A stretch of 64,000 nucleotides of DNA from an uncultured Cytophagales bacterium (GCA_946409305.1 CAMJVU010000002.1:451-64450); one strand, 5' to 3'. Shown: positions 1,087-62,088, counted from the stretch's first letter. Notes: generated by a model from the letters alone, not told the origin. Numbers and translations are program-made.

Positions 1087-1234
1087 AAAAATATTTACTT
1101 ATAATTTACTACACCACACAATAACTAATTTTAAGAATTAATCACCACTTCTGTAAATAAGATCTAATCGATCACAAAACCGACCAACCAAAACCACGAG
1201 TACCACGAGGTAAAAACACAATAACGGAACAAAA

Positions 1235-1685
1235 CTACCAACAGCCACACCCTTTTCCCCTGGTAACAATCCGTCTTGGTTTCTCATCTAGTCGAATACC
1301 TCTACCACCCTCAGAATCTTTTTTACTTTCATTCTTACGGTAAATAAAATAAATCGTAACACTAGAATACTTACCACCACTACAAAAATTCAACAATAGA
1401 TCTTCATTTTCTGGCCTTTTCCCTTTAATTGGAACAGCTTCTAAACAGTCGGGGGACAATGAAAACTCCTCTGCAAAATCATTTCTTATCTTTTTAAAAG
1501 TAGTTCCGAGAGGGTATCTCCTATCCCGCATAACCCCACTATCATGTTCACACACGCACGGTTATCACATTATTTAAGATTTTTAAATCATCATCCAAAT
1601 CAGAATCCATATTTCCGTAAGTAACAACTAATCCGTATGTTACCAACACTACACAAACGAAATGCCATATTTTATTTGCCTTCAT
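1235..1685 (-). pseudogene. Split member of the MK(T/A)NK-leader small lipoprotein family (leader ORF 1548..1685 plus body ORF 1235..1555 in the next frame)
   Basis: An unlisted 45-codon ORF runs from the ATG at 1685: MKANKIWHFVCVVLVTYGLVVTYGNMDSDLDDDLKILNNVITVRV, ending at TGA 1548-1550. It overlaps track ORF 1235..1555, which is shifted by one nucleotide. The junction lies in the GT-rich tract GTGCGTGTGTG (plus strand 1549-1559). The lipobox Cys of the other family members is Tyr here. Confidence 0.55.
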
Positions 1686-1704
1686 AATCATAACTCCTAC
1701 ATCC
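1605..1704 (-). repeat. Conserved 5' cassette, copy D (upstream leader plus signal-peptide codons)
   Basis: GGATGTAGGAGTTATGATT-ATGAAGGCAAATAAAATATGGCATTTCGTTTGTGTAGTGTTGGTAACATACGGATTAGTTGTTACTTACGGAAATATG aligns by eye with the copies at 3903-4009, 26853-26958 and 35014-35120. Confidence 0.7.
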
Positions 1705-3130
1705 CTCGTATCACATCAAAAGTCAAAGTATCGCCATCACTTATTACATGCTTTACATCATCAAAATCTTTCAAATCATCTAAAGAAGGACTAGAAGCAT
1801 AGTTCAGAATAACTCCATTTAAATAAAAAAGGTTATAATGACATTTACCAACCAGCTCTGGTTTCTTGTTAATAAGAGTCCAATAGAGAACATCCAACAA
1901 TGATTGTTTCCTACTTGTTTTTATACCGTTAAAGTTATATACATCTTCTGACCCCTGAACTCGAACTTTGACGTTTATCTCTACATTCTCTCCTTCATTT
2001 TTACTAGCCAATGTCTGAAGAGCCTCAGGATTCAAACGATAAGTGACATTATTACATTCTGGAACAACGTTGTAAACACTTTTCTCGAGATAATCACCAA
2101 CATTTTGACACGTATAAAACAGAATGTAAGGAGAACCCACAACATTACAACAATCCCACTCTTGTACAATTTTATCATTATATAAGAACCACTTACTACA
2201 TTTCTCGTTATAAACGTACGCAACATAATGACCACCTCCTTTTTCAAAAGAAACAAAAGAAGATAATTTGTAAGTATATCTCTGGAGGTTTACCATTCCA
2301 AATTTGTTCACGTCAAACTTGTTTCCATTTATTATATCACCCGCACTAACATTAACGATCATAACTGGAGCAAATTGATTCAAACCATTATTAAACGGGT
2401 TAGAAAGATCAAGTCCAACTGGGAGCCATCCCAAAAAGCTTTGGATAAGAAGTCTTAAATGATCATTAAACGTATAAAAAAGATTTTCGATAACGTTCAC
2501 GTTATTATTCCCTAATTCTGACGACAATACATTAACAATGTGACTCAAAAGTTTACACGAATCAGCGGGAGCAAAATGACAAAAAGGATTATCCTCGACA
2601 TTATTCTTTCGACCAGTAGTCATAGGAATCTCACCCACAAGATTCTTAAATAAATCAGCACTGAAAATATCCTCACCATCGTTAATCCACAAATTGTAAA
2701 AAACATCAAATAACTGTTTCGTCAAAGTATTATTCGACATTCTCTCAAAAACATCTTGATACCTAATAAAATAATTTCCCAATGCAGGTAAATTACACAA
2801 ACACTGCAATACAGCATTCATATAGCACGTAGCACCAAAATTCTTCAAACCCTTCGTAAAGAATCTTGTATTACCATCATCACTGAATAACCTTTCACGT
2901 GACTTATTTTCTTGTTCCTTTGCCAATCTCTGAATTAAATTTAGATTATTTCCACCTCCACTCTGCTTAACAACATCACTCGAATTGTTTCCACCTTCAC
3001 TCCGATTAACGGTATTATTCCCCAACAGAGGATCGGTACCAACATCCTGTGAACAACAACAAAGACCAAAATAAGAGCAACCGACACATAAGCATGCCCC
3101 CAAAACAGCACACTTCACCAACATCTTCAT
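1697..3130 (-). CDS. USP/UCH-type (peptidase C19) deubiquitinase-like cysteine protease with N-terminal signal/lipobox-like anchor
   Basis: 477 aa. N-terminus MKMLVKCAVLGACLCVGCSYF. Cys box GLKNFGATCYMNAVLQCL. His box GGGHYVAYVYNEKCSKWFLYNDKIV. Confidence 0.85.
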   Translation of the reverse strand: MKMLVKCAVLGACLCVGCSYFGLCCCSQDVGTDPLLGNNTVNRSEGGNNSSDVVKQSGGGNNLNLIQRLAKEQENKSRERLFSDDGNTRFFTKGLKNFGATCYMNAVLQCLCNLPALGNYFIRYQDVFERMSNNTLTKQLFDVFYNLWINDGEDIFSADLFKNLVGEIPMTTGRKNNVEDNPFCHFAPADSCKLLSHIVNVLSSELGNNNVNVIENLFYTFNDHLRLLIQSFLGWLPVGLDLSNPFNNGLNQFAPVMIVNVSAGDIINGNKFDVNKFGMVNLQRYTYKLSSFVSFEKGGGHYVAYVYNEKCSKWFLYNDKIVQEWDCCNVVGSPYILFYTCQNVGDYLEKSVYNVVPECNNVTYRLNPEALQTLASKNEGENVEINVKVRVQGSEDVYNFNGIKTSRKQSLLDVLYWTLINKKPELVGKCHYNLFYLNGVILNYASSPSLDDLKDFDDVKHVISDGDTLTFDVIRGM

Positions 3131-3178
3131 ACTTTATAACAACAAACTAATATAAGAAAGCAAAAATAGCAAAACTTA

Positions 3179-3705
3179 TTACTTAAAAATTTTTCTAATT
3201 TCCTCAAATTTATTCTCGACAAGACCAATGTAATGAACCATTTTCTCTGAGCCTGGAACAAAATCACTTTCCTTAATCGTTTCACCACAACTACAAGAGA
3301 ACATAGCGCTTCCAATGTACGTGTCTATATGAATTCCTTTAATGTATTTAGAATAAGCATCCAAATCCGTCTTAATACCCCCCCCTTTACGTTCTCATCA
3401 TTATATGTCTGGACAGAATCCATGACTGCTTCATTATACCAATTATTAAATGTAAATTCCCTCCGCCCATACTTCGAACGTATTACTATCTCCGCAGGAA
3501 TAAAATTCTCCACACCTCTACTATCGCGAACCACACTACTAAAATTTTCCCCATCATTCGACGAAGAATTTTCCAAACAACAGTTACAAACAAAAACAGT
3601 CAGTAACATCGTGACCACTAATCCCGTGAAATTATAATAAACATAAAAACAACACACAACGATTAATGAAAACAAGAATTTAAAAACCCAACCACAAGAC
3701 CTCAA
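3179..3705 (-). pseudogene. Membrane-anchored hypothetical protein split by a G8 homopolymer (phase-variable gene or fresh pseudogene)
   Basis: Track ORFs 3325..3705 and 3179..3364 overlap in different frames, and the frame change coincides with the C8/G8 run at 3378-3385. G9 or G6 would give one ORF of about 175 aa. Confidence 0.7.
3378..3385. repeat. Homopolymer C8 (G8 on the coding strand) at a frameshift point
   Basis: Read directly: cttaataCCCCCCCCtttac. Confidence 0.95.
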
Positions 3706-3821
3706 ATAACGAGATAAAAAAAATCAACACCCAGTCGTACCAACCCGACCAGGGGCACTAATACAATAAAAAACTAGTGTTAGTTCGAATTCTGTGTGTT
3801 ATTACCTTGTGTATTAGGCCC

Positions 3822-3983
3822 TTAACACAAAATACAAGGGCATCTACTATCACTCTCCGGATTCTGATCCAAAGTATTATCACTATCAGTATCAATATCA
3901 TTATACATATTCCCACAAGCAACAACTAATCCGTATGTTGCCAACACTCCACAAATGAAGTGCCCTATTTTATTTGTCTTCAT
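3822..3983 (-). CDS. Small (53 aa) acidic lipoprotein, MKTNK-leader family, C-terminus CPCILC
   Basis: The internal ATG at 3983 of track ORF 3822..4097 gives MKTNKIGHFICGVLATYGLVVACGNMYNDIDTDSDNTLDQNPESDSRCPCILC. The lipobox is LVVAC. The track N-terminal extension is upstream leader read through. Confidence 0.7.
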   Translation of the reverse strand: MKTNKIGHFICGVLATYGLVVACGNMYNDIDTDSDNTLDQNPESDSRCPCILC

Positions 3984-4009
3984 AATTGTAACTTCTAAAA
4001 CCACGATAA
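3903..4009 (-). repeat. Conserved 5' cassette, copy A
   Basis: TTATCGTGGTTTTAGAAGTTACAATT-ATGAAGACAAATAAAATAGGGCACTTCATTTGTGGAGTGTTGGCAACATACGGATTAGTTGTTGCTTGTGGGAATATG. It differs from copy C at about 9 of 78 coding positions by hand alignment. Confidence 0.75.
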
Positions 4010-4192
4010 ATAAATACAAATAAAATACAAAAATCCGCTCAACTGATACCGGCACTCTTGGTGATTCACCGCTAATACCAAACATTTCACAACACATTAC
4101 AGTTTAAAGGATAACACCACTACTAATATCTTCTGTTCAAACCACATCGACGTTAACACACTCAGAAACGGACAAATAATTAGAATTAGTAC

Positions 4193-7540: not shown

Positions 7541-9400
7541 TTACGTGTACAAATTCCTGTAATCAACGACATTAAATCTCTTTAAAATCAAATTATCCAT
7601 CATGGTATCAACTTCTTCCCTTCTACCTTTCAACATTTTATCACATAGATTCGTATATTTTTCGTTATAATCCTTGCTACTGCTATCATTGCATTTTATA
7701 TTAACAGAATTTTTAAGAACAACGAACAAACCATTCTCGTCTTCTATACATATATTATCCGAAAATGGGAAAAACATAGTATTAAAAAAATTAATCACAT
7801 GCCCACATCCATCTATTCTTTCATCTTTAAAAGACAAATTATTCTCTTTTACCAACTTAACCTTATCCTTGTATATATCCTTCACTTTATTAAACATTAA
7901 ATCAACAGAAATATTATCATCAACTAACGTCATAATCTCTTTTTCAATAGCTTTAAATTTTCTATGTTTTATAACCTTTTCTCTTACCTCATCTTTTATC
8001 TTATCCATTTTTTTCACTCCTTTAAGAGTATGTTCCAATATGTAACACACTAATATTCCACTTTCCTCAGTAAAAAACAAAGCATCATTGTTTTTTTTGT
8101 GGGTAGTAAATATCTCCCTCACAATAGATCTAGCATCATTTATTTTATCATCTATATAACCACTATCAATTTTTAGTGTTTTACTTTTTACATCAATTTT
8201 TTTTTCATCCACATACTTGTTCAATAACTCGACGTTAGTAATTTTTTTAAACTCTTTTTTCACGTTACTAAAAGTTTCCTTCTTCGTCTTATCACCTATT
8301 CGCACTTCCTTCTTTAATACAGCAACTTCAAACTGTTCCTCCCCATCTTTTTTCTGAATATCAAGAACACGATAAACCCTATTAAAATCATCCATCGTCT
8401 TTGACACCTCATAATATGAATCACCGACGGATAAAGTTTTATCCTTCAAAACATCTGGTAAAAGACTCCTGTCCACAGTAAAAACATAATCCTTATACAA
8501 TGAAGTATCCTCTTCTTTTACATTATCCGATTTATACTTTGCAAACTCCATTGGACTTTTACTTTTAACGAAAGACTTTCTTATTGTTTCTAACTCCTTA
8601 CTATTTAGTGAAACGTCCAAGTCAGACAATTTAAACGGAACAATAAAATACTTGATTTCATATTCTTCATCCGTGAGGTAATCATGTTTGTTTTTATCAA
8701 CATAATCCTTTAAATCTCTATCCACTATCTTGTATTTACTACCATCTACGGAATCATAAGGGATATATATAACGTTCAAATCGATTGAAGATTCTTTTTC
8801 TCTCCATTCCCTTTGACATTCAAGTTTGTTGACAAATGACAAATTTTTTGCCAACATATTCATTTTTTTTTTACACCTAGAATCTTTCAATTTTAACTCA
8901 TAATCATTCCACCGTTCAGACATATTATCAGACTTAGATGCTTTTTTAAGATATTCTACAAGTTGTCCCTTATCAAAAGTCCCATTTTTATCTTCAACAA
9001 AAGTACTCCTTATTTCATCATCTATATGATCCCCCTGTACCATGTCAATAGTTTCATTAACTCCAACCTTTATCTGCATATTTTTTGCCATTTTAACATA
9101 TGCCTTTTCATTTATCATGCTCGTTAACACAGAATTTCCGAAATATTTCCTGAAAAAAGAATCATTTGTTTGTATTTTGTAGCGGTTATGTGCGTTAGCC
9201 ATCGTAATATCAAGTCTCCGTTGAAAATCATCAAACATTATTTTGTCACCATTAACAACAGCTATACATTTACCGTCATTGCCCTGACCACGTCTCATAA
9301 AAGCATATGCAAATTCCTGAATTATAAACGCGATACAACAAACAATTACAACAACAACCAACACCACACTATGTTGCCTTACCTTACCCAAAAGAGACAT
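7541..9400 (-). CDS. PpiD-like periplasmic chaperone / SurA-N-domain protein, membrane anchored
   Basis: 619 aa. It has the single N-terminal TM typical of PpiD (MSLLGKVRQHSVVLVVVVIVCCIAFIIQEF) and a long Lys-rich soluble part. The assignment rests on architecture only. Confidence 0.5.
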   Translation of the reverse strand: MSLLGKVRQHSVVLVVVVIVCCIAFIIQEFAYAFMRRGQGNDGKCIAVVNGDKIMFDDFQRRLDITMANAHNRYKIQTNDSFFRKYFGNSVLTSMINEKAYVKMAKNMQIKVGVNETIDMVQGDHIDDEIRSTFVEDKNGTFDKGQLVEYLKKASKSDNMSERWNDYELKLKDSRCKKKMNMLAKNLSFVNKLECQREWREKESSIDLNVIYIPYDSVDGSKYKIVDRDLKDYVDKNKHDYLTDEEYEIKYFIVPFKLSDLDVSLNSKELETIRKSFVKSKSPMEFAKYKSDNVKEEDTSLYKDYVFTVDRSLLPDVLKDKTLSVGDSYYEVSKTMDDFNRVYRVLDIQKKDGEEQFEVAVLKKEVRIGDKTKKETFSNVKKEFKKITNVELLNKYVDEKKIDVKSKTLKIDSGYIDDKINDARSIVREIFTTHKKNNDALFFTEESGILVCYILEHTLKGVKKMDKIKDEVREKVIKHRKFKAIEKEIMTLVDDNISVDLMFNKVKDIYKDKVKLVKENNLSFKDERIDGCGHVINFFNTMFFPFSDNICIEDENGLFVVLKNSVNIKCNDSSSKDYNEKYTNLCDKMLKGRREEVDTMMDNLILKRFNVVDYRNLYT

Positions 9401-9429: not shown

Positions 9430-10011
9430 TCATTTATCATTTAGTTTCTTATCAAAAAAGACAAAAAATATAGCACCAAATATTATGCACAAGTCTGCTA
9501 CATTAAATATTGGAAGATGATGCACCCCTCCAAAAATTGGGAACCACTCCGGCAATATATTAATTGGTTCTGTACTAAAGCATAACATGTCTATCACCTG
9601 TCCATTAAACAACTTCATAGGAGCATAACTAGGAGCATTCCCTAACAATACACCGTAGAATATTATATCTATGCAATTACCAATTGCTCCACCCAATATC
9701 AATCCCGCTCCATACATTCTCAACCTCCTGTACAAGTATTGAGTAGAGTCGTAAAAAACTTTTTTAACCACATAATAAATCAGCGCAAAACGCAACAACA
9801 AAAGTATTAATTTCCAATGTTCCCATTCAAACACATGTCCCATGCAAATTCCTGGATTAGTTACGTAATAAAAGTGTACAAGACCCATATCCCTTAACTC
9901 CCCCAGCTTCATGTTAAAATGAACCCACAATTTGACGTACTGATCCAATATTACCGAACAGAAACACAGACAAATAACTAAAAATTTATCACGTCTTGAC
10001 ATCTCGCCCAT
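9430..10011 (-). CDS. lspA: Lipoprotein signal peptidase (SPase II)
   Basis: Four TM segments, with GGAIGNCIDIIFYG and FNVADLCIIFGAIFFVF matching the conserved LspA Asp-containing motifs. Confidence 0.85.
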   Translation of the reverse strand: MGEMSRRDKFLVICLCFCSVILDQYVKLWVHFNMKLGELRDMGLVHFYYVTNPGICMGHVFEWEHWKLILLLLRFALIYYVVKKVFYDSTQYLYRRLRMYGAGLILGGAIGNCIDIIFYGVLLGNAPSYAPMKLFNGQVIDMLCFSTEPINILPEWFPIFGGVHHLPIFNVADLCIIFGAIFFVFFDKKLNDK

Positions 10012-13307: not shown

Positions 13308-14270
13308 TCAACACTGGTTTTTTTCAATACGTTGTAAAGTTTTTATTATCTCATCCAGCGACGGCCTGTTTTTGTCGTATTTTGCCAACATAGATGTTAA
13401 TAAATTCTTTAATTCACTTGTTGACATTCCTCTAATATTTTTATCGTATTCAGCATTAAAGACTCCCCTTACTTTTAAAATTTTTCCCAAATATCTCTTT
13501 TTGTTTCCCAAAGACGCCACCAGGTTCGTTAAGTTATTTAAACTATATCTCCCAAAACCCTCCATTTCATCAATAAACACCATTTTGTACAATACTAACC
13601 CCAAACACCAAATATCATACTTGAATGGATCATAACCAGTACCTTTTACTAAACCATTAGCTACATCGAACGAATAATTTCTAAATGTTCCACGTTGCGC
13701 ACTCGACTTACCATCATTACATAAAAGCATTGATCCAAAATCGATTATTTTTACATTATTATTTTTATCAAACATTATATTGCTTGGTTTTAAATCCAAA
13801 TGAGCTATACGCTTCTTATGCAAATCACTAATAATCTTAACGATTTGTAAAAAATGATTAGATAACCTACGTGGATTATTTGAATAAAATCCCCTATTGA
13901 TCCTATCTTTTAACGTACACACACACCTTTCCATGATTTCATATCTTTTGCCATCATAGTCTACAACATTTTGTATTTTTGCAACGCCAGGCACCTGCTT
14001 TAATGTATTTATACTATCGTAGAACGTATCGTTATCTTCTTCTCCTACTTTCAAAACAAAATTATCATTCAATGTGTACACAGAGCCATTAAAACCACTA
14101 CCGATACGCTTTATTTCGTCCGGGTTACAGTTTATTCCAACATTACATTGATCTAACATCTTTACGATTTCCCGTTTTCTGAATACATCAAGAAAATTAC
14201 ACAAACTTACCTGAACAAGACTTACCTGGATAAGTATGAATTCGAACAAAACAGAGACGTAACCCCTCAT
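13308..14270 (-). CDS. Eukaryotic-like (Hanks-type) Ser/Thr protein kinase with N-terminal hydrophobic segment
   Basis: G-loop IGSGFNGSVY, catalytic loop IAHLDLKPSNIMF, KIIDFGS (DFG) and subdomain IX DIWCLGLVLY. Confidence 0.85.
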   Translation of the reverse strand: MRGYVSVLFEFILIQVSLVQVSLCNFLDVFRKREIVKMLDQCNVGINCNPDEIKRIGSGFNGSVYTLNDNFVLKVGEEDNDTFYDSINTLKQVPGVAKIQNVVDYDGKRYEIMERCVCTLKDRINRGFYSNNPRRLSNHFLQIVKIISDLHKKRIAHLDLKPSNIMFDKNNNVKIIDFGSMLLCNDGKSSAQRGTFRNYSFDVANGLVKGTGYDPFKYDIWCLGLVLYKMVFIDEMEGFGRYSLNNLTNLVASLGNKKRYLGKILKVRGVFNAEYDKNIRGMSTSELKNLLTSMLAKYDKNRPSLDEIIKTLQRIEKNQC

Positions 14271-16796: not shown

Positions 16797-18814
16797 ACAA
16801 AAGACAGATCAACAGTTCTATTTTCTACATTGCATTTCTTAACTATAACATCAATTTGATCTCCAATACAGTACCTATTTCCAGTATACCTTCCAACTAC
16901 TTTTATCCTGCTCCTATCCAAAATAAAAGTATCATATTTATATTCACTAAACCTTATCAATCCCTCACACTTAGAATCTGTAAGTTCAACAAAAATTCCC
17001 CATTCAGCGACACCAGTTATAATTCCTATCAATCTTTGTCCAAGATAATTATTTTTAACAAACTCAACCTGTTTAAATCTTATAGATTCTCTTTCCGCAT
17101 CTGTAGCCAATTGTTCACGTTCCCCAGCATATGTACACGCTTCGCTTAATTTATTTACGTCAATTATAGGGACATTGTTTAACATCTTTTTTATCATCCT
17201 ATGAACAAGAACATCTGGATATCTACGTATAGGTGACGTAAAATGAGTGTAATGTTCGAAAGCCAATCCAAAATGTTGTTTAGGTTCTGTTGAATAAATA
17301 GCTTTAGGCATCATTCTTACTGCTGATGTTAATATAACATTTTCCTCTGGTTTTCCTTTAACTTGCTCTATAATCTTGTTAACAGAAAAAGGCAACCTAT
17401 CAATATCCTCATCTAAAATAAAACCAAATTGTTTCACAAGAATGGCAAAAGCTACAACCTTAGATTTTTCTGGAGATTCATGAACTCTGTACAAAAAACA
17501 AGGATACTTCTTTTTGTTTTCATTGCACATTTTATATGCATACATGGCAATATTTTTATTTGCCAAAAGCATAAATTCCTCAACTAAATGATGACTATCT
17601 AATAAATCCGTCTTTGAAATATTCAACGATAAATCCTCATTAACACCAAAATTAACATCCTCAAATTCAAAATTAATAGCTCCATGTAAAAATCTTTTCT
17701 CACGTAAAGCTTTGGATATCTGGAACAAAATGTCAATATTCTTGTGAAGTTCGTGTGTACTGTCATCGATAATATTCTGTGCCTCATCATACGTTAATCT
17801 TTTATCAGAACGAATAACTCCCTCACCTATCCACTGATTATAAACTTCTCCATCCATGTCCATCTCAAAAACGATAGACATTGTCAACCTATCTTCATTG
17901 GGCAACAGAGAACATAAATCATTACACAACACTTCTGGAAGCATCGGTATTACCCTGTCAATTAAGTACACAGAAGTGTTTCTTTTATAAGCTTCAACAT
18001 CAACAGGAGAACCATCCTCCACAAAATAACTTACATCAGCTATATGAACACCTACTTCGTAATGTCCATTATCTAATGACTTAATGGAAATAGCGTCATC
18101 AAAATCCTTTGCTGTCAGCGGATCTATTGTAACTGTAAAATCAGACCTAAAATCTCTCCTTTCCCTTAAAACATTTTCATCAAAAGGTTTTTTGTCCACG
18201 AAATCAGCCACCTTACTACAAAATCGTTCAGGTAATCCATATTCGTTAATTATCGACTTCATCTCTGTTTCATGTTCTCCGACCTTCCCAAAATTTTCAA
18301 CTATATTACCCTTGAATGTATATTCATTTTCAGGGTAATCAGTTAATTTAACCTTTACCCTATAAGATGTGTCATTATCAAAATTTAAAGAAGACACTTG
18401 AGAAGAATCAATAGATATTGGCCAGAAAAACTTTCTATCGGATACATTGACTAGAAAACCTTTCTTACCATTACTTTTTAAATTCCCAACAAACGTAGTT
18501 TTTGCATGTCTTATGATGTTTAAAATTTTTCCACGATAATGCCCATATTTTTTTTCACCCAATACGCCTACTCTAACCACATCTTCATTTATCGCAAAGT
18601 TCATGTCGCGCGCTACAATAAAAACATCGCCAACCTTCTTATCACTCGCAATAACATACGCAAAACGCTGACTTACATAGTCGACAGTCCCAACAACAAC
18701 AAACTTATATCGAATTCTCTCAACACACCGTCTAAGACACGAACCTACACGCTTAAAAAAATTCGATAAAAAATCAGTTCTACTACGAATTCTTGACTTT
18801 TTGTTTCTTTTCAT
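16790..18814 (-). CDS. rnr: Ribonuclease R
   Basis: RNB-domain wording (TIDPLTAKDFDDAISI, VHIADVSYFV, RVIPMLPEVLCNDLCSL, HFGLAFEHYTHFTSPIRRYPDVLVHR) and a C-terminal S1 (GIITGVAEWGIFVEL). Confidence 0.9.
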   Translation of the reverse strand: MKRNKKSRIRSRTDFLSNFFKRVGSCLRRCVERIRYKFVVVGTVDYVSQRFAYVIASDKKVGDVFIVARDMNFAINEDVVRVGVLGEKKYGHYRGKILNIIRHAKTTFVGNLKSNGKKGFLVNVSDRKFFWPISIDSSQVSSLNFDNDTSYRVKVKLTDYPENEYTFKGNIVENFGKVGEHETEMKSIINEYGLPERFCSKVADFVDKKPFDENVLRERRDFRSDFTVTIDPLTAKDFDDAISIKSLDNGHYEVGVHIADVSYFVEDGSPVDVEAYKRNTSVYLIDRVIPMLPEVLCNDLCSLLPNEDRLTMSIVFEMDMDGEVYNQWIGEGVIRSDKRLTYDEAQNIIDDSTHELHKNIDILFQISKALREKRFLHGAINFEFEDVNFGVNEDLSLNISKTDLLDSHHLVEEFMLLANKNIAMYAYKMCNENKKKYPCFLYRVHESPEKSKVVAFAILVKQFGFILDEDIDRLPFSVNKIIEQVKGKPEENVILTSAVRMMPKAIYSTEPKQHFGLAFEHYTHFTSPIRRYPDVLVHRMIKKMLNNVPIIDVNKLSEACTYAGEREQLATDAERESIRFKQVEFVKNNYLGQRLIGIITGVAEWGIFVELTDSKCEGLIRFSEYKYDTFILDRSRIKVVGRYTGNRYCIGDQIDVIVKKCNVENRTVDLSFVC

Positions 18815-19127
18815 TTACTTTCTTAACACTCTTCCCAACCTTTACATCACCATCATTAACTGTACTCTCATTACGTACATTCCCACTTTTTTTAGCCACA
18901 ACATTCTTAGTCTTTTTTACCGTACTTTTACCGTCTTTCTTACCAGACAAAGACTTAACATCATCACAAACTGTCTCGGATTTTACGGGAACAAAATTCT
19001 TTTTCAAATCTTCTATATTTACACCCTTTACGACAGGTTTTCTTAACAATCTCTTCAACTCTTTCTGTGCCGCAATAGACTTCATTCTTCTCCTCTTCAC
19101 ACGTCTCTGCAATCTCGTTATAGCCAT
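18783..19127 (-). CDS. Highly basic Lys-rich small protein, unknown function
   Basis: 114 aa, MAITRLQRRVKRRRMKSIAAQKELKRLLRK... It overlaps the annotated rnr start by about 30 nt. No motif recognised. Confidence 0.4.
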   Translation of the reverse strand: MAITRLQRRVKRRRMKSIAAQKELKRLLRKPVVKGVNIEDLKKNFVPVKSETVCDDVKSLSGKKDGKSTVKKTKNVVAKKSGNVRNESTVNDGDVKVGKSVKKVNEKKQKVKNS

Positions 19128-19303
19128 AAACTAAAGTATATCATTATAATACACCTTAAATTACCATATTACTTACCAATCAATGTGAAGAACAAGAACA
19201 AACATTTAATTCCGAGTATCTTAAAAGTATCTTAAAACGACTACGGATATTGACAACACTGATTAGCCAACTTTAATCCTACGAAATTTTTATTTATTTA
19301 TTT

Positions 19304-19987
19304 ATGAAAGCTGAAATTTTCTATACGCTGATTGCTATTGCATGTTTAGACTCTACCTATATACCAAGAAACGGTAAAATAACTCCTCATAGAAATGACA
19401 TGTTAAGATCTAAAGATGGTGAGAGTAATCACCAACTATCTGTTACGTGGGGAGGACTTTGTGCAGGAAGTGTTTTGGGAACAATTATTTGTTACTCTAA
19501 TCACTGTTGCGGAGGTCTCCCATCTCTATTTAATATCAACTTCTCATACACATATTGGTTCAACAGGTACGTAGGCATTATTGGTAATCTTGCCTTATTT
19601 GGGGATCCATATTATTCCATTATTTGTTTTGGAGGTATTAGTAATTCTATAGTACAACTTGATTGGGGAATTAGATTGAGTTATAACGGTAGAGGAATTA
19701 ATAGAGGTAATGGTAGGTGTTATAGTGGAAGATTGATGGTCAATATAGCATGGGGAAGTTTTATGAGGATCGTAAATGTAGGTAGATTCGAACCTCAACT
19801 TGATAGATTTGGAATAAACATTAGTTTTGTCCCTATTGAAATGGTTACAAAGAGGGGATTTATTTGTGGAGCAAATGTAGTATGTTTTGATGTAGCATAT
19901 TGGTTTATTTATACTAGTAGTGATCCGGCCGTGTTGTCAATTTTAAAAGGAATAAAAATATATTTTGGTAAAATCTGGTCGTTATAG
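19304..19987 (+). CDS. Small beta-barrel OMP-like protein, paralogue family member P1
   Basis: Shares LSVTWGGL, YWFNRYVGI, QLDWGIRLSYNGRG...RCYSGRLMVNIAWGS, GINISFVPIE and a terminal YFGKIW with the ORFs at 23013, 40651, 53848, 55023 and 59858. Confidence 0.7.
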   Translation: MKAEIFYTLIAIACLDSTYIPRNGKITPHRNDMLRSKDGESNHQLSVTWGGLCAGSVLGTIICYSNHCCGGLPSLFNINFSYTYWFNRYVGIIGNLALFGDPYYSIICFGGISNSIVQLDWGIRLSYNGRGINRGNGRCYSGRLMVNIAWGSFMRIVNVGRFEPQLDRFGINISFVPIEMVTKRGFICGANVVCFDVAYWFIYTSSDPAVLSILKGIKIYFGKIWSL

Positions 19988-20018
19988 TAATGTAGAAAGA
20001 TAAAAAACGATAGGGAAA

Positions 20019-20588
20019 TTATATATATTTTTCTACAAACTTGAATGATTTAAATGATAGTAACCCGATGAAACTGCCTAGTATTCCTTCAAATAAAACT
20101 TCAGGTGAAGCATTGATATCGTTCATGCACTTTAATATTCCACTTACGATCGGCCACATGAATAACAACTTTATTTTTCCACATTTTTTTTTTAACAATA
20201 TTGAGACAAACGATGTTACTCCAAACGAATTGGCCAAATTGTTATTGATAATATACGATTTTACATTATCCACATTGAACCCGTTTAACGAAGATGTTAC
20301 ATGATTATTAAAAAAATTTTTTATATATGGTTTTACGTAATCAGCTACAGGTTTAATAACGGATAAATCTGCTTTATATGATATCGCAAATATTAAAAAT
20401 ATAAGTACTGCAATTAATAATATTTTCCATTTGTAATGTTTAATTAGCAGATACAGAATAAATAAATACACTGTAATTAAAGTATATTTGTTAGTCATTA
20501 TTTCCGACATTTTACCAGCTATGACACTGTCATTTGGAATTTCTACTTTTACAAACTTATTAACGGTATCTCTTATAATATGACTCAT
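20019..20588 (-). CDS. Integral membrane protein, possibly a degenerate PAP2-like phosphatase
   Basis: 189 aa with several TM segments. NSFGVTSFVS and ASPEVLFEGILGSFIG loosely recall the PAP2 motifs SFPSGHT and HYPSDVLAGALLG, with the catalytic His residues missing. Weak call. Confidence 0.3.
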   Translation of the reverse strand: MSHIIRDTVNKFVKVEIPNDSVIAGKMSEIMTNKYTLITVYLFILYLLIKHYKWKILLIAVLIFLIFAISYKADLSVIKPVADYVKPYIKNFFNNHVTSSLNGFNVDNVKSYIINNNLANSFGVTSFVSILLKKKCGKIKLLFMWPIVSGILKCMNDINASPEVLFEGILGSFIGLLSFKSFKFVEKYI

Positions 20589-20589
20589 A

Positions 20590-22335
20590 CTAATTCAAAT
20601 TAATAATAACATCTTTATATTGCTCGCCATTTATAATGTTTATTTCTTTGTCATAATGCGTTACATTGTCATTCGGACTCAATTCATATATGTTCCCATA
20701 ATGCCATTTATCTTGTTTTAATGGCCAAGAAAGACACCTCACGCGATATTTTCCAAACGCAACATTCCTAAAATTAAAATTTTTCACATCATATATTTCC
20801 TCAATAACTTTATATTCTTTATCAAGTAGTTGAACAGTAAAATGTTTGTTATTTGAATTAATTAATCCACTGATATCTCCACATTTTGATGTAAACTTTG
20901 TCGTTAATGTTTTCTCTTCATTCTTCTCTTCATCCTCATAAACTATTGCATCTTTTATGATTATTAATGAAACCGTTATATCTTGTTTCGCATCTATAGA
21001 CTTTCCACTTTTTTTTAGATTATTTATTATGTTCTTCACATTGTTTTTCAGCTTGATTGAAATAGTATTTGTCTGAGTATCAAGAACAATATCGTCATCC
21101 GAAGTATTAATAGCGTACTCTCCATTAACGATTAATTTGAAAAACTTTTTATCAATGGATGATATAGTTTTAGTATTGCTTACCTTGAACGACGGATATT
21201 CTGATATTATTCTGTTTTTATTCAAACATTCAATAGTTAAATTGTCTTTTTGTTTTTTATTTTTTTCCTCAACAGACTTATTACTAAAACTAACATTTAT
21301 CGTTTGTTCTAAACGGTTATTGTATTCGTCATATGCCACAATATCAACTGGAAGAATGTCAATATTGGGTAAAAGTTGTAATTTACTATTGTCTAAGGTT
21401 AACTTTTTTTTATCATCAGATACACAAGCTTTTCTCAATGCTTCTTTTATACGCTTTGATTCAATCTTTGTGGAACACTGAATTTTTATTACAGGTTTAT
21501 TGAATATAACATTAAACATTCTGTCTTCACTTTTACATTCTGATACTTTAAAATCAAAAATATCGGCATTTGTGATAAATAAATCCTCGACATGTTCACC
21601 GTTTACATTAATTGGATAATGAATAAATCCATATTTGTTTTTACCTGGATCACACAACGTAGAACTATCGATATTATCGCTAGATGTTAAAATATATTTA
21701 CCTGGCGATATATTTTTTATAACGTATCCTCCTCTTCCATCTATTTGTGTTGAATATTCTGGATCCAGACAATTTAAGATGTTGGCTTGTTTTTCAACAT
21801 CGACCAACTTCACTTTTCTTCCATATTGATATAAATTGACTACTCCACTTTTTATTGGTTGATTATTCATCAAATCTCTTACACTTCCCTTAACAACGCA
21901 ATTACTTATTTCATCACCCGTGCTAAAGGATATAGTGATTCCCTTTATATGGTTATCATGTTCATCTTTTATAGCGTCGTTAAAGTTTACTATATATGTC
22001 GTGTCCTCATTTAGAGGTGCCTCAAACTTTAACTTTATAACTTTCCCCTTTTTCGTACACGTAAATATTTTATTTTTTTTGGGAGATGTTTGAATTATTT
22101 TAGGAGTTATTGAAATCTTTTTATCATCAACAAATACCGTTTTACTAAACTTTAGTTGTATCACATCTTTTTTAGACATTCCCCAATCGGTTGTTCCAGA
22201 TTGTGGCCTCTGTTCTATAAGTTCTGCTGCTTTTTTTTCTAAAGATTTTCCAGATAATTGTTCAGGACTAGCAATTCTTAAATTACATAAAATTGTCAAC
22301 AATATTAAGACATTATTTTTCATAATTTGCAACAA
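20590..22335 (-). CDS. Large secreted beta-rich protein (Ig-like / carboxypeptidase-regulatory-like wording), function unknown
   Basis: 581 aa with signal peptide [25 protein letters not shown] and beta-sandwich-like segments ([38 protein letters not shown]). Confidence 0.45.
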
Positions 22336-22873
22336 ACATTTTAGCCCTATTTAATAGATTAATATCATCCTTGTTGTCCCCTCTAACTGCAAATGTTTTT
22401 GTAACTGCATCATACTGTTTTACTCCTCTCAATACCATACATAAGTGAGTAGCAGAAATGTTTACAGTTACGAACTTACTGTTTGTTGATGATACAATTG
22501 CTTCAGCTATATTAGAAGTAAGATATTCTTGTACCTGTAATTTGCGTGACAAACCATCTACTATCCTTGCAAATTTAGATAGTCCCAGTATTTTCCCATT
22601 AGGAATATAAATTATATCAACCTTTCCATAAAACGGCATTAGATGGTGTTCACACATCGAACAAAATGATATTCCTTTGACTGAAACTAGATCATTATTT
22701 ATTTCTGTTGCGGTAAATGATGTTAGTTCTTGTGAATTATCCGATAAAAATTCTTCATACATTTTTGCAATACGTTTTGGAGTATTTAGCAATCCTTCTC
22801 TTGCAGGATCTTCTCCTATCGCTTCTAACAACATTGAAATAGATCTTTGAACCTTCTCCTTATCTATTGCCAT
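22313..22873 (-). CDS. folE: GTP cyclohydrolase I
   Basis: [20 protein letters not shown], the zinc-site wording [22 protein letters not shown] and QVQEYLT. Confidence 0.95.
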
Positions 22874-23012
22874 AAATAATAATCAGTAAATTGATACAAT
22901 ATTGCATTTAACAAAACAATAATCTTTTATTTTTTTCTATCTCAATTCATGTTACAAAAATATCGAACTATTTATGTCTTTCGTTTATCGATAATTACTC
23001 ATTTTCACTACT

Positions 23013-23714
23013 TTAGTGTAAACGTGAATTAGAAGATTCGACTTTTACTATCCATGATTTCCCAATATAAAATTCAAAACTAGCTAGTTGATCATAAAGG
23101 AAATTTTGAAAATTTCCTTTGAATACAGTTCCAAAATCGAGATTTAAAAACCTAATTCCCCAACATAATCCGCCATTCGTTTTTGATTTTTCAATTAGTG
23201 TTAATCTCATGTTCAAACCAATACATTTATACCATTGATCACTCGTCATATTCCCAAACATGACATTTAAGGTCATATTTCCACTGTATACTATATCTTT
23301 GTCCTTTTTATAAATGAAAAAAACACCACCACCAAGTTGGATAATAGACATCACATAATATCCAGACACAAAATCATAAAATCTTTCACCCCACGGACAA
23401 TTAACCAAGCATAATATACCGACTCTTTTATTTAGTCTGTATTTAAACTTATATTCCAGCTTACAAAGTAACATTATACCAGAAATCTCATCACTCCCTT
23501 GGTTCAAATAGGAATTAAGTAAGTTCTCAATAACACCTTTAATTAAGTTAACAACCGAAGCGGTATTCAGTCCACCATACACTAAAGAATGTTCTTTTGT
23601 TCTGTAATTATCTATTCGTTTCTTTTTCTTTACAGTAAAAAACGTTTCATTACGAATTCCATTTACAAACATCCAGAAAAACACCATTCCTCCTAATATC
23701 TTTGTAAAATTCAT
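23013..23714 (-). CDS. Small beta-barrel OMP-like protein, family member P2
   Basis: Family motifs HSLVYGGLNTASV, IIQLGGGVFFIYKK...NMTLNVMFGN, LNMRLTLIE, WGIRFLNLDFG and FEFYIGKSW. I start it at ATG 23714, because the track start at 23876 would overlap mnmE on the other strand. Confidence 0.65.
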   Translation of the reverse strand: MNFTKILGGMVFFWMFVNGIRNETFFTVKKKKRIDNYRTKEHSLVYGGLNTASVVNLIKGVIENLLNSYLNQGSDEISGIMLLCKLEYKFKYRLNKRVGILCLVNCPWGERFYDFVSGYYVMSIIQLGGGVFFIYKKDKDIVYSGNMTLNVMFGNMTSDQWYKCIGLNMRLTLIEKSKTNGGLCWGIRFLNLDFGTVFKGNFQNFLYDQLASFEFYIGKSWIVKVESSNSRLH

Positions 23715-23733
23715 AAAACCAATAGCATGTAAT

Positions 23734-25077
23734 ATGTTTAATAATGATATTATCGTTGCACTAGCTACTCCTAATAGTAGAAATGGAGCTATTGCCGTGA
23801 TACGATTATCTGGAAGTGGAAGTATAAATTTGGTTAATTCATGCTTAAAGAAAAAAAATATAGACAAACAACGCAATCATTCTTTAACGATAAATACATT
23901 TCTTGATGGTGACAGTGACCTTGACGATGTCGTTATTTCAATTTATTTCAAGGGAAGTTCATACACAAAAGAGGAAAGTGTAGAAATATCCTGCCATAAC
24001 TCCGAATACATAATAAACAGGATAATATTAATCCTTATTAACAACGGTGCCAGGATGGCAGATCATGGAGAATTTACTAAACGTGCTTTTTTAAATGGGC
24101 GATTAGATATTACTCAAGCAGAGGCAGTCGCCGACATTATAGCCTCAAACTCTAAATCATCACACGATATAGCTATACAACAAATGAGAGGTAATTTCTC
24201 ATCGAAAATTAAGGATATACAATCAGATATTATAGAAATAGCATCACTTTTAGAACTTAATTTGGATTTTTCACAAGAATATGTCGAATTCACAGAACGT
24301 GATACGATAAAAAATAAGTTAGCCAATATAATCAAAGAAGTATCCTCTTTGGTTGATAGTTACAAGATAGGAGAAGTAATAAAAAACGGATTACCAATAG
24401 CCATAGTCGGAAAACCTAACGTTGGAAAATCATCATTATTAAACAGACTGTTAAAGGAAGATAGGGCTATAGTATCCCCTATAGCCGGAACTACCCGTGA
24501 TACTATAGAGGCCGAAATATGTGTAGACGGAATCAACTGTAGATTTATAGATACAGCAGGATTGCGAGATGATACTTGTGATGCTATAGAACAGATAGGT
24601 ATCGAAAGAACTAAAAAAATGATAGAAAAAGCAAAACTTATATTGTATCTTGTTGACATCAATACAAAATTGGAGGAATGTAAAGATGATATAGAGTACC
24701 TAGAATCGTCAAATAAAGATTTCAAAATTATATGTAATAAAATAGATTTGAAGGATAACTTTTCAAACATAGACAATAAACACATCTACATCTCTGTAAA
24801 AAATGATATTAATATAAACCAAATAACTGATTACATATCATCGAAATATGCCAAATCTAACGATGAAATAATAACTAACGCACGACATTATTGCACTCTA
24901 ACACAATGTTTACGTTCTCTACAAAATGCCTACGAAGAAATGTCAAATAACACCCCAGATGATTTAATTATGATAGATATCAGTAGTTGCATTGAAGATT
25001 TAAATAATATAACTGGACAATCGATATCAGATGAAATTCTTAATTCTATATTCAAAAAATTTTGTATCGGAAAATAA
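23734..25077 (+). CDS. mnmE: tRNA modification GTPase MnmE
   Basis: N-terminal DIIVALATPNSRNGAIAVIRLSG, G motifs GKPNVGKSSLLN, DTAGLR and NKIDL, and the C-terminal FCIGK. Confidence 0.95.
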   Translation: MFNNDIIVALATPNSRNGAIAVIRLSGSGSINLVNSCLKKKNIDKQRNHSLTINTFLDGDSDLDDVVISIYFKGSSYTKEESVEISCHNSEYIINRIILILINNGARMADHGEFTKRAFLNGRLDITQAEAVADIIASNSKSSHDIAIQQMRGNFSSKIKDIQSDIIEIASLLELNLDFSQEYVEFTERDTIKNKLANIIKEVSSLVDSYKIGEVIKNGLPIAIVGKPNVGKSSLLNRLLKEDRAIVSPIAGTTRDTIEAEICVDGINCRFIDTAGLRDDTCDAIEQIGIERTKKMIEKAKLILYLVDINTKLEECKDDIEYLESSNKDFKIICNKIDLKDNFSNIDNKHIYISVKNDININQITDYISSKYAKSNDEIITNARHYCTLTQCLRSLQNAYEEMSNNTPDDLIMIDISSCIEDLNNITGQSISDEILNSIFKKFCIGK

Positions 25078-25223
25078 AAAAACGCAAATATTTATTAGAT
25101 AACGTATTTTACTTGTTTAATTGCTACGTTATTGAGATATCGTTAACGTTTTTTTAATTCACCTGAATTTTACTTTGCAATATTTGCACTTACTGTTACA
25201 TATTTGCATTATTGTGTACTTGA

Positions 25224-26660
25224 GTGTACACATATTGTATGTTTGGGTTTCGATGTTACGATATGTGGAATGTTTTTAAGAAAGACGTGCTTTATAGATT
25301 CTTTGCTGTGCGTAATGGTGGTGTTTTACTGTGCGTGTTATTTAGTGGAGTTTCTTGTTATCCTCCTAAACTGAGTGAAACGTCAGGTAGTGAAATGTCG
25401 GGTGATAAGGTGCCGTATAAAGGTGACGAATACCAAAAGGTGTTAAAAGAGGACTATGGATACAAGGATAGTGAGAAACTGGAATTTTTACCTGTGAATA
25501 ATGTAAAGAAACCATATGTGACCGATGTTCTTAAGGATTATGTTAAACCTACGATGGTAGGATTGGAAAATGTGGGAGCGACTTGTTTTATGAATGCAAC
25601 TTTGCAGTGTTTGAGTCAGACTGAAAGGTTGGTTAGATATTTTTTAGATAAAAAAAACGAAGAAAGGATAAATAACAACAATATTACTATGAAAAAGAAC
25701 GAGGAATGTCAGTTGTCTCCTTCATTTCTTGAGGTTATCAAAGGACTGTGGAATAAGGATTGTAAATCTGGATATTATGATCCTAGCAGTTTCAGGGATC
25801 TTGTTGAAAAAATGAATCCGTTGTTTGAGAAGGGGAAAGCGGGTGATCCTAAGGATTTTATTATATTTATACTTGAACAGTTACACAAGGAGTTGAGTAA
25901 GAATGTTGCAGCTACCTGCGATGAATACAATAAAATGATACGACCGAATAAATTTTTCAATCAATATGACAAGAAAAGTGCATTTTCTTACTTTTTTGAA
26001 AATTTTACAAAAAACTGTTCGATAGTAACGGATACCTTTTTTGGAACTACTGAGACGATGCGTCAGTGTGTAAATTGCAAATTGATTTGCTACAATTATG
26101 AGGTTTTTAATTGCCTCATTTTTCCTTTGGATGAAGTAAGGAAGTTTGTGAACAATATGTCTATGAATAATATGAACAACATGTTTATGCCTATGAATGG
26201 AAATAGAGTTAGTCTACGTGATTGTTTCTTGTATAATGGAAAGACAGAATTGTTCTGTGGAGAAGATCAGAATTATTGTAATCGTTGTAAGGGTTTGCAT
26301 AATTCGGGATATACTTCCAGGATATATACAGAACCAAATGTTCTAGTTTTAATACTTAATAGAGGTAAGGGGAATATTTATAATGTTGGTTTGGATTTTG
26401 GTGAGTCTTTGGATATAACGGATTTTGTTGTGAACAAAAATGGAAGAAAAGTTTATGAATTGTATGGGGTTGTTACCCACTTTAAAGGAAACGATCCTAA
26501 GGGACTTGATTCTCATTTTATGGCATCTTGCAAGAATCCTATTGATAATGAGTGGTACAAATATAACGACAATAGTGTTACTAAAGTTAAAAATGTTCAA
26601 AGAGATGTTATAGAATTTGGAACTCCTTATATATTGTTTTACAAGAAAAGAGAAAAATAA
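25224..26660 (+). CDS. USP/UCH-type (C19) deubiquitinase-like protease, second copy, with N-terminal hydrophobic anchor
   Basis: Cys box GLENVGATCFMNATLQCL, a CxxC pair (CVNCKL...CNRCKG) in the finger region, and His box DSHFMASCKNPIDNEWYKYNDNSV. The start is uncertain (GTG 25224, ATG 25239 or ATG 25263). Confidence 0.85.
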   Translation: MYTYCMFGFRCYDMWNVFKKDVLYRFFAVRNGGVLLCVLFSGVSCYPPKLSETSGSEMSGDKVPYKGDEYQKVLKEDYGYKDSEKLEFLPVNNVKKPYVTDVLKDYVKPTMVGLENVGATCFMNATLQCLSQTERLVRYFLDKKNEERINNNNITMKKNEECQLSPSFLEVIKGLWNKDCKSGYYDPSSFRDLVEKMNPLFEKGKAGDPKDFIIFILEQLHKELSKNVAATCDEYNKMIRPNKFFNQYDKKSAFSYFFENFTKNCSIVTDTFFGTTETMRQCVNCKLICYNYEVFNCLIFPLDEVRKFVNNMSMNNMNNMFMPMNGNRVSLRDCFLYNGKTELFCGEDQNYCNRCKGLHNSGYTSRIYTEPNVLVLILNRGKGNIYNVGLDFGESLDITDFVVNKNGRKVYELYGVVTHFKGNDPKGLDSHFMASCKNPIDNEWYKYNDNSVTKVKNVQRDVIEFGTPYILFYKKREK

Positions 26661-26852
26661 CGATATATCTGTAATTTTCCTTTGTAATATCGAAGTGGTA
26701 TCATGTTTTTTATCTTTGTTTGTTATTGTGAGGGTTGGTGTTTTTTTCGTAAGGTATTTTTGATTTCTGTGATCATTTAAATCTGTAACGTTTTAAACGT
26801 AAGTATTTTTTATTTTTCTTTTAACAATATTTGGTTTTATTTATTTATTTAT

Positions 26853-26958
26853 TTATTGTGGTTGTAGAAATTGCAATTATGAAGACAAATAAAATGTTAC
26901 ACTTCGTTTGTGGAGTGTTAGTAGCACAAGGTATTGTGGTTACTTGCGTGAATGGATG
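26853..26958 (+). repeat. Conserved 5' cassette, copy B
   Basis: TTATTGTGGTTGTAGAAATTGCAATT-ATGAAGACAAATAAAATGTTACACTTCGTTTGTGGAGTGTTAGTAGCACAAGGTATTGTGGTTACTTGCGTGAATGG. Confidence 0.75.
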
Positions 26959-61548: not shown

Positions 61549-62088
61549 ATTTGAACTTGATTTGTTTCATGTCGAGTTATTTATCGATGTAAGAAGTGTT
61601 TTTGCGAGGGATAAAAAAGTAACAACTGTTTAAAAATTCACTTCGATCTCCTATTTTTTTGATTAAGTTTGAGTACAAAAACAACCATGATTATTTTTAT
61701 GGCTCTAGTAAATTTAACAAATTCTGACTGTCTATAAAATCTAGATTAACAAACCATAGCATTACTGTAGATCTATGAATTTTTCATCGCAAAAATTACA
61801 ACTATGAAAAAAAATAAAAATTTTAGGGACGCGTTGTATCATTATCATTAGAAGTGTCATAGAAAAGATAATCAATCTTGTTAGATAAATTGTTCAGTTG
61901 TACATAGTTGCAATAATAGAAAAAGCCATGAAGAATCAGATAAACTTTTGTGATAGACAGGTGATTGAGAGATAGAATGAGTAGGAATAAAGAAAACGAC
62001 AACTTACAAATAAATTCTTCAACATTTGAAGTTTTGTTCATCTAGTAGAACACGATATTTTGATTCTTGTTTTTTGTTTTACTATAGT

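Follow-up and report, generated by a model that had tools for sequence, protein, structure and literature searches.

A lineage-specific multigene family with a shared 5' signal module and diverse cargoes in a Bacteroidota genome

Four genes in a 64-kb stretch of bacterial DNA (the window; genes A to D) begin with nearly the same ~100 nt and continue into mature parts that mostly cannot be aligned with one another. We consider it probable that they belong to a lineage-specific multigene family with a shared 5' signal module, which is kept alike by selection together with gene conversion. The family is genuine and previously undescribed in this Bacteroidota symbiont lineage, and its evolutionary design is already known from other bacteria.

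Results

Four cassette copies in the window

A nucleotide profile of the shared segment (nhmmer, positions -30 to +78 relative to the ATG) retrieves four copies in the 64-kb window, with E values from 3.7e-31 to 5.6e-28 and no weaker match (Table 1). Alignment of the four starts places the beginning of the similarity block ~25-30 nt 5' of each ATG and its end after codon 26. The alignment, the segment identities and the profile all bear out the preliminary description, which had reported four genes with a near-identical 5' ~100 nt, and its four peptide sequences and cargo descriptions are correct. Measured over ungapped segments, the 78-nt leader is 72-88% identical between the four window copies. 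The earlier count of 9 differences in 78 positions had been assigned to the wrong pair: it belongs to A and B (ATGs at 3983 and 35040), while A and C differ at 20/78. From -30 to -1 the identity is 73-87% among A, B and C and 53-60% for D, so the upstream ~25 nt, once described as common to all four genes, are shared by the first three. In D this segment contains the stop codon of the deubiquitinase gene before it, USP1, which accounts for its weak similarity. Flanks outside the cassette show 13-57% identity, mostly ~30%, which is the background for sequence of 32% GC. Past codon 26 the identity falls to this background, as the abrupt end of similarity reported earlier would have it, save that A and D keep a residual 53% for ~30 nt beyond the leader.

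The upstream motif GTGGTTNTAGNANTTNNAATTATG has three exact occurrences (0 mismatches) in the window, compared with 0.10 expected; it is therefore no general RBS context, and it was absent before other genes among the 43 upstream regions inspected. The similarity is one of DNA, non-coding upstream bases included, and convergence is excluded. On this point the upstream identity, the nhmmer profile and the motif count agree with the earlier proposal that these are not convergent signal peptides. Similarity confined to the amino-acid level, or a motif preceding most genes, was looked for, and the outcome was the opposite: the upstream DNA is conserved and the motif is rare.

Table 1. Features of the window discussed in the text (positions counted from the first nucleotide).
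Feature	Position	Strand	Description
Cassette copy A	3906..4013	-	nhmmer E 3.7e-31; ATG 3983; canonical lipobox
Cassette copy B	35010..35117	+	nhmmer E 3.5e-29; ATG 35040; canonical lipobox VVA-C
Cassette copy C	26849..26956	+	nhmmer E 5.3e-28, with alignment and identities; 5' leader plus 26-codon signal MKTNKMLHFVCGVLVAQGIVVTCVNG; ATG 26879
Cassette copy D	1608..1715	-	nhmmer E 5.6e-28; ATG 1685; upstream part degenerate; Tyr for lipobox Cys
Gene A	3822..3983	-	53 aa: leader plus 27-aa acidic peptide ending RCPCILC; orthologues P0005 and P0032
Gene B	35040..35345	+	101 aa; cargo ends in the conserved GCPFNPFALCNKEAN region; orthologue P0031
Gene C	26879..27862	+	Leader, CDFLCGFC, acidic linker, ~240-aa Cys-rich domain; no detectable homologues beyond the lineage
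D reading frame	1235..1685	-	45-aa ORF (stop 1548-1550), then a 106-aa ORF in another frame (1235-1555) ending GCGCW
Predicted RNA hairpin, copy C	26856..26882	+	11 bp, G.U-rich, 5-nt loop; AUG (26879-26881) in the 3' arm
(TTTA)5 tract	26836..26855	+	Just 5' of the hairpin, between putative promoter and hairpin of C; (TTTA)4 in L005 (~8170-8185)
Conversion tract in copy C	26822..26921	+	Matches the paralogous P0034 locus (L010) bar 1 nt; breakpoint between 26917 and 26922
USP1	1697..3130	-	UCH deubiquitinase directly 5' of D; Pfam UCH 5.6e-24
USP2	25224..26660	+	Eukaryote-like UCH deubiquitinase directly 5' of C; Pfam UCH 6.5e-42; deleted in L006
lspA (signal peptidase II)	9430..10011	-	NCBIfam PRK14788 3.3e-38, below curated cut-off

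Genomic setting and probable host

Genes A to D sit between pnp, clpB, ileS and mnmE on a chromosomal contig, 2-31 kb apart. An SD-like motif lies upstream of 1 of 43 genes, and the window contains PF19579, a Bacteroidetes FtsL-like family; the scarcity of SD motifs and this family point to Bacteroidota. Housekeeping genes in the window include pnp, rpsO, lspA, mreBC, RNase R, mnmE, clpB, ileS, pheT, gyrA and ddl, and its eukaryote-like genes are two UCH deubiquitinases and one Ser/Thr kinase. Endosymbionts of rumen ciliates from the Amoebophilaceae have genomes of 0.53-0.6 Mb with 32-33% GC and encode eukaryote-like proteins (bioRxiv 10.1101/2025.07.29.667580). Judged by GC content, eukaryote-like genes and Bacteroidota markers, the bacterium is probably an Amoebophilaceae symbiont of rumen ciliates.

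Several features of the surroundings deserve mention in their own right. USP1 and USP2 each carry a signal-like N-terminus of their own, and each is directly followed by a leader-family gene (D and C, respectively). A duplicated module of deubiquitinase plus leader gene was ruled out, as USP1 and USP2 are merely ~30% identical. Between A and USP1 lies a 126-aa ORF (3325-3705, minus strand) with a Cys-rich hydrophobic N-terminus (…VFVCNCCLENSSSNDGE…), which is kept in L009 and gave no family match. The Ser/Thr protein kinase (13308-14270, minus strand; Pkinase, E 4.6e-28) is another host-interaction candidate. A 27-nt spacer rich in (ATT/AAT)n (31834-31860) separates the divergent genes 30913-31833 (minus) and 31861-33294 (plus). 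The GC skew strongly tracks the coding strand, with values up to about +/-0.35-0.44 per 2 kb in stretches dominated by a single strand, and the window ends cut long open frames of 662 aa (~62013-64000, plus) and 366 aa (1-1100, minus).

The upstream segment

Directly 5' of the coding region, the segment in copy C is predicted to fold into a hairpin that engages the start codon, at -6.9 kcal/mol (z -3.9). Across copies the predicted energies lie between -3.5 and -10.1 kcal/mol, and z falls as low as -6. In the hairpin alignment 93.5% of cells are paired, compared with 34-60% when it is slid, and substitutions in the 5' arm retain or strengthen pairing with the invariant AUG. The stem depends on G.U pairs, so it would form in the sense RNA only. 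Covariation in the seven sequences was not above that of shuffled controls. Among the window copies the hairpin is found in A, B and C; it is absent in D, in the L006 version of copy C and in the second tandem copy of L009.

Gene callers choose an upstream GTG start, which would make these seven codons coding (MVVEITIM). We rejected this candidate: when the segment is read as codons (GTG GTT nTA GnA nTT nnA ATT), variation falls at first and second positions only, the reverse of what coding sequence gives, and D has stops there.

Farther upstream, the (TTTA)n tract may undergo slipped-strand variation and so alter the spacing. The Bacteroidetes -7 box has the consensus TAnnTTTG. A TTTG-containing near-match to it lies 37-49 nt 5' of the ATG in A, B, C, L007 and L010; the exact TAnnTTTG occurs upstream of B only, with a one-mismatch variant elsewhere. 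The position of this putative box suggests that the conserved block begins near the mRNA 5' end. A scan for sigma-70 promoters and terminators was uninformative, and an Rfam scan returned tRNA only.

The signal sequence

All four copies have the basic start of a PS51257-like signal, with K/R among the first 7 residues followed by an uncharged stretch of at least 6 (MKTNK or METNK, then IGHFICGVLATYGLVV). For the lipobox itself we used the PROSITE PS51257-type rule [LIVMFWSTAG](2)-[LIVMFYSTAGCQ]-[AGS]-C, with the Cys at position 15-35. The sequences of A, B and most small relatives conform to it (VVA-C, Cys at 23), which amounts to ~25/35 family members; those of C, D and P0033-P0038 do not. 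In C, P0033 and P0034 the -1 position is occupied by Thr or Val, and D, P0004, P0017 and P0035-38 carry Tyr or Phe where the Cys would be. Thus the statement that the lipobox makes all four proteins SPase II substrates is supported for A and B, whose lipobox is canonical, and is not supported for C (Thr at -1) and D (Tyr for Cys). The lspA gene named along with it was confirmed: the locus is matched by lipoprotein signal peptidase models, the best of these matches falling short of the curated cut-offs (Table 1). We found no lgt in the window. The GNM after the Cys is better conserved than the Cys itself, and a plain SPII signal does not account for this pattern of a variable Cys and -1 position beside an invariant GNM.

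The preliminary description had also likened the acidic residues after the Cys to the lipoprotein surface-export signal (LES) of Bacteroidota. By experiment the LES is C-X-K-(D/E)2-X, or alternatively Q-A-(D/E)2, at +2 to +6, and its position is critical (PMC5080379). The two cases have in common a lipoprotein signal in a Bacteroidota organism and charged residues downstream of the Cys. They differ in that the place of K-(D/E)2 is critical in the LES, whereas the family has an invariant C-G-N-M at +1 to +4, with charged residues, often K, from +5 and acidic ones at +5 or later. The family sequence does not conform to the LES consensus, and the likeness has to be given up.

The same observations bear on another reading of the N-terminus, as a sequence-specific targeting tag or uncleaved anchor (for host membranes or dedicated sorting) in which the VVAC is incidental. 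The higher conservation of GNM than of Cys speaks for it, as do the members that have no Cys or a non-permissive -1 residue, a peptide conserved far more tightly than generic signal peptides need, and the eukaryote-like deubiquitinases next to the copies. We nevertheless think it quite unlikely: a rule-conforming lipobox with the Cys at 23 is present in ~25/35 members, lspA is kept in an apparently reduced genome, and no candidate recognition machinery was found. In the shared-module model that we prefer, most small members, A and B included, would be lipid-anchored small envelope or surface proteins, which we infer from their lipobox. The degenerate lipobox of C, D and several long-cargo members would leave them as SPase I substrates or uncleaved anchors; D may alternatively be a decaying gene.

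Family members and their cargoes

Protein searches with the leader profile gave 14 matches among 5.8 billion proteins and 22 among 1.84 billion cluster representatives, and an expanded profile gave 16. Together with cluster members, these matches yield ~35 distinct family proteins in public databases. All ~35 share the N-terminus M-[KE]-[TA]-N-K-x-x-[HR]-F-[VI]-C-G-V-L-A-T-Y-G-L-V-V-A-C-G-N-M or a close variant. Among genome contigs, a degenerate pattern of 21 leader bases gave four single chance matches only, in unrelated MAGs; of two JGI metagenome scans for the leader the first returned nothing and the second three chance matches. The chance matches alone in these collections indicate that the lineage is absent from them.

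Clustering of the cargoes of the ~35 members resolves at least 11 groups that are mutually unalignable and span 17-300 aa. One group has 13 members ending ...GEQSCLSKLYKKK. Others are the A type (RCPCILC or RCPCVLGQEPN), the B type, the Cys-rich C type (~300 aa) and the D type, and there are singletons of 30-130 aa, P0034 among them. Long cargoes are exemplified by the Cys-rich domain of C and by the 130-aa acidic stretch of P0035. Many small cargoes follow one plan, a charged, mostly acidic linker and then a C-[PL]-[CS]-x-[LF] motif, so the description of the cargoes as unrelated holds just approximately for the small members: the mature domains fall into 11 unalignable clusters, and many of the small ones have the acidic linker and Cys motif in common. 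A C-terminal CaaX/CXC prenylation motif (CPCILC, NCPCL, DCPC) was considered as a general feature and rejected, since the motif is internal in orthologues (RCPCVLGQEPN..., GCPCIFGQG...). The stop codon of A is a lineage-specific truncation relative to its orthologues.

No Pfam, NCBIfam or PDB sequence match was obtained for any cargo, save a non-significant match of P0034 to a RAD23 UBL domain (E 0.07); the P0034 cargo is possibly a UBL-like domain. A DGDTL(V/T)F motif is common to the P0034 cargo (L010 1884-2300) and the C-terminus of USP1 (~1700-1760, minus strand), and ubiquitin-like modules may exist within this gene set. The cargo of gene C (27119-27859, plus strand) is ~240 aa long, with several dozen Cys, mostly as CxxC pairs, and conserved His, and its Cys/His pattern resembles that of multi-zinc-finger proteins. 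It has three homologues among 5.8 billion proteins and is without Pfam or PDB match. AlphaFold2 run on protein C with a 4-sequence alignment gave a mean pLDDT of 29.7, an unusable model. The entry P0021, present in NCBI and ENA, is window protein C itself, and close relatives of it come from metagenomes. The C-terminal half of B is nearly unchanged in its orthologue P0031 while the linker differs, which argues that the cargo genes are real. D is probably a frameshifted, decaying family member; L009 and P0004 show the same state.

A conserved leader in front of hypervariable cores is also the layout of prochlorosin and of NHLP/Nif11-type precursors. That the family encodes RiPP or bacteriocin-like precursors would fit the small size of its members, the conserved leader with a variable C-terminal part and the recurrent Cys motifs. 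We regard this as extremely improbable, however. The leader is a hydrophobic signal with a lipobox, unlike a soluble recognition leader cleaved at a GG-type site; Pfam and NCBIfam searches of ORFs covering most of the window gave neither a modification enzyme nor a C39 peptidase or an ABC exporter; and cargoes reach 300 aa.

A recombination tract in copy C

Related sequences allowed the history of the cassette to be followed. L005 is 99.3% identical to window 18667-29680 and L009 98.9% identical to window 1-3987; L010, from the same sample as both, carries the P0034 gene; L006 is 91-97% identical. From -57 to +42, copy C differs from its paralogue in L010 by 1 mismatch in 100 nt. Beyond +42, C tracks its orthologue in L006, and L010 tracks the family consensus. 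A gene-conversion test, as proposed in the preliminary description, was run on the informative sites, and within the 78-nt leader of C it found 12 of paralogue type followed by 13 of orthologue type with zero interleaving (permutation p<1e-4). The window and L005 are independent assemblies with the same C sequence, so the mosaic is no assembly artefact. A tract of gene conversion or crossover is thereby demonstrated in copy C; the demonstration covers a single pair, and its donor locus belongs to a 99%-identical strain rather than to the assembly of the window. Recombination or conversion of the 5' module, as claimed earlier, is shown directly by this copy.

Further loci also bear on recombination at the cassette. 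L009 carries two tandem family genes, P0006 and the orthologue of A, 7 nt apart; their leaders differ at 1/78 nt and their cargoes are unalignable. P0026 has the same tandem junction in another genome with a different cargo behind the second leader. P0006 shows a GAA-to-TAA nonsense change relative to P0011 (L009 4935-5145), which truncates it before an SCLSKLYKKK motif; the next family gene in L009 begins 7 nt past the old P0006 stop, without an upstream element. Synteny between L009 and the window breaks inside the A leader: the window reads pnp-A, as does the more distant P0032, and L009 reads fusA-P0006-A. This break is either a real cargo relocation via leader recombination or a metagenome mis-join at the repeat. 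In L006, USP2 is precisely deleted (L006 4575-4660 compared with window 25290-25347 plus 26849-26880). The deletion fuses the USP2 signal-peptide codons to the 5' margin of cassette C through the microhomology GTGTTATTTA, and the L006 cassette C is without 8 nt of the hairpin 5' arm.

In Mycoplasma, vpma genes are switched by a site-specific recombinase. Phase variation of the vsa/vpma type, in which a recombinase acting at a 5' site would shift one expression site among silent cargoes, would accord with copies in both orientations, with D and the second L009 tandem copy lacking the upstream element, with the strain-level break inside the leader and with the (TTTA)n length polymorphism. It is very improbable all the same, as the scanned window ORFs hold no recombinase or integrase domain and the upstream element is complete in all of A, B and C. 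Moreover, the copies are dispersed among essential genes 2-31 kb apart, so that inversions would rearrange the chromosome.

Selection on the leader

Between canonical copies the leader has pS of 0.06-0.35 and pN of 0-0.10; for A and B the values are 0.35 and 0.05, from six changes at synonymous and three at non-synonymous sites. It follows that synonymous sites do vary and that the leader peptide is constrained, being under purifying selection. The conservation of synonymous positions had been taken as a mark of recent duplication or conversion. Conversion does contribute, as copy C demonstrates, but with pS up to 0.35 purifying selection contributes also. The orthologues of C keep its leader; for this reason both the leader and its fusion to the cargo are old.

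These data invite the simpler reading of an ordinary paralogous family, in which one small lipoprotein gene was duplicated, the disordered mature parts diverged and selection alone kept the signal and the initiation region. The common plan of the small cargoes, the real synonymous divergence in the leader (pN<pS) and the retention of the C leader by orthologues all suit it. This simpler course of events is unlikely, although it carries some weight. The C mosaic is impossible without recombination, the cargoes extend from 17 to 300 aa with distinct domains (the Cys-rich one of C, a possibly UBL-like one in P0034, an acidic one in P0035), and a leader with pS of 0.06-0.35 adjoins completely unalignable sequence. 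Low pS beside unalignable sequence requires either non-homologous cargoes or homogenisation of the leader, and we continue to favour a shared module subject to both selection and conversion.

Discussion

In the model that we favour, the module of ~105-135 nt consists of a ~25-30-nt 5' leader and a 26-codon Sec-type signal sequence. The 5' leader carries a weak predicted hairpin that pairs with the AUG and probably starts near the transcription start; the signal sequence comprises an n-region MKTNK, a 17-residue h-region, VVAC and the invariant GNM. The module is joined either to short, acidic, fast-evolving Cys-motif peptides or to larger unrelated domains. Two homogenising forces act on it in this model. 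The peptide is kept by purifying selection, and gene conversion or recombination occurs episodically, which also makes the module a breakpoint for rearrangement and cargo exchange.

The preliminary description knew of no described system that corresponds to this one. That view has to be corrected, as both the Borrelia erp/UHB genes (PMC10016077) and the Mycoplasma spma genes (PMC2824730) are close architectural precedents. The erp genes combine a single promoter, leader and localisation sequence with many diverse sequences, joined by recombination (PMC10016077). As in erp/UHB, a conserved 5' region, the leader peptide and the first mature residues are followed by diverse remainders: here -30 to +78 is conserved, GNM is retained and 11 cargo clusters follow. 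Recombination within and between genes is a further likeness, represented here by the mosaic of C between L010 and L006. The two systems differ in several respects. There is no sequence relationship; the erp genes are allelic on cp32 prophage plasmids, whereas the present copies are dispersed on a chromosome amid housekeeping genes. Most of the present cargoes are very small acidic peptides (17-75 aa); upstream conservation extends over a short ~30-57 nt, with a predicted AUG hairpin; and the organism belongs to another phylum and is probably an intracellular protist symbiont.

The spma genes of Mycoplasma agalactiae have a common signal peptide with lipobox and a polyG repeat tract in the 5' UTR (PMC2824730). 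The spma/vpma likeness extends to the simple-repeat tract of the 5' UTR, polyG in spma and (TTTA)4-5 here. The Mycoplasma families are clustered, whereas the copies described here are dispersed and no recombinase was found in the window; in addition, the cargo here has no internal repeats, and some members have a degenerate lipobox. Judged by their layout, the erp/UHB and Mycoplasma families are architectural analogues and no homologues. Conotoxins and anuran antimicrobial peptides likewise pair a conserved signal with a hypervariable Cys-containing mature peptide, and gene conversion is discussed for anuran AMP genes (PMC13128954). Those genes are eukaryotic and exon-based, so the likeness is an evolutionary analogy only.

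A bolder version of the model would make the leader with its GNM a dedicated export or host-targeting tag of a ciliate endosymbiont, placed before unrelated effectors that are co-regulated through the AUG hairpin and born by recombination. We consider this improbable. If true, the effectors delivered would include micro-peptides with the Cys motif, the Cys-rich protein of ~300 aa and possibly domains of ubiquitin-like type, and the module would be a natural plug-and-play secretion cassette in a ~0.6-Mb genome.

In practical terms, the repeat accounts for broken contigs, and for possible mis-joins, where the lineage is assembled from metagenomes. The family would offer a candidate set of symbiont surface or secreted factors and a defined 26-residue tag whose export is testable. 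It would also be a clean natural example of promoter/leader-module evolution by recombination outside spirochaetes and mollicutes. If the organism is an Amoebophilaceae symbiont of rumen ciliates, a genome of ~0.55-0.6 Mb would hold at least six to nine family copies. So many copies in a genome of this size, with the 5' module undergoing active conversion, would, if true, make the products likely to be central to the host-symbiont interface.
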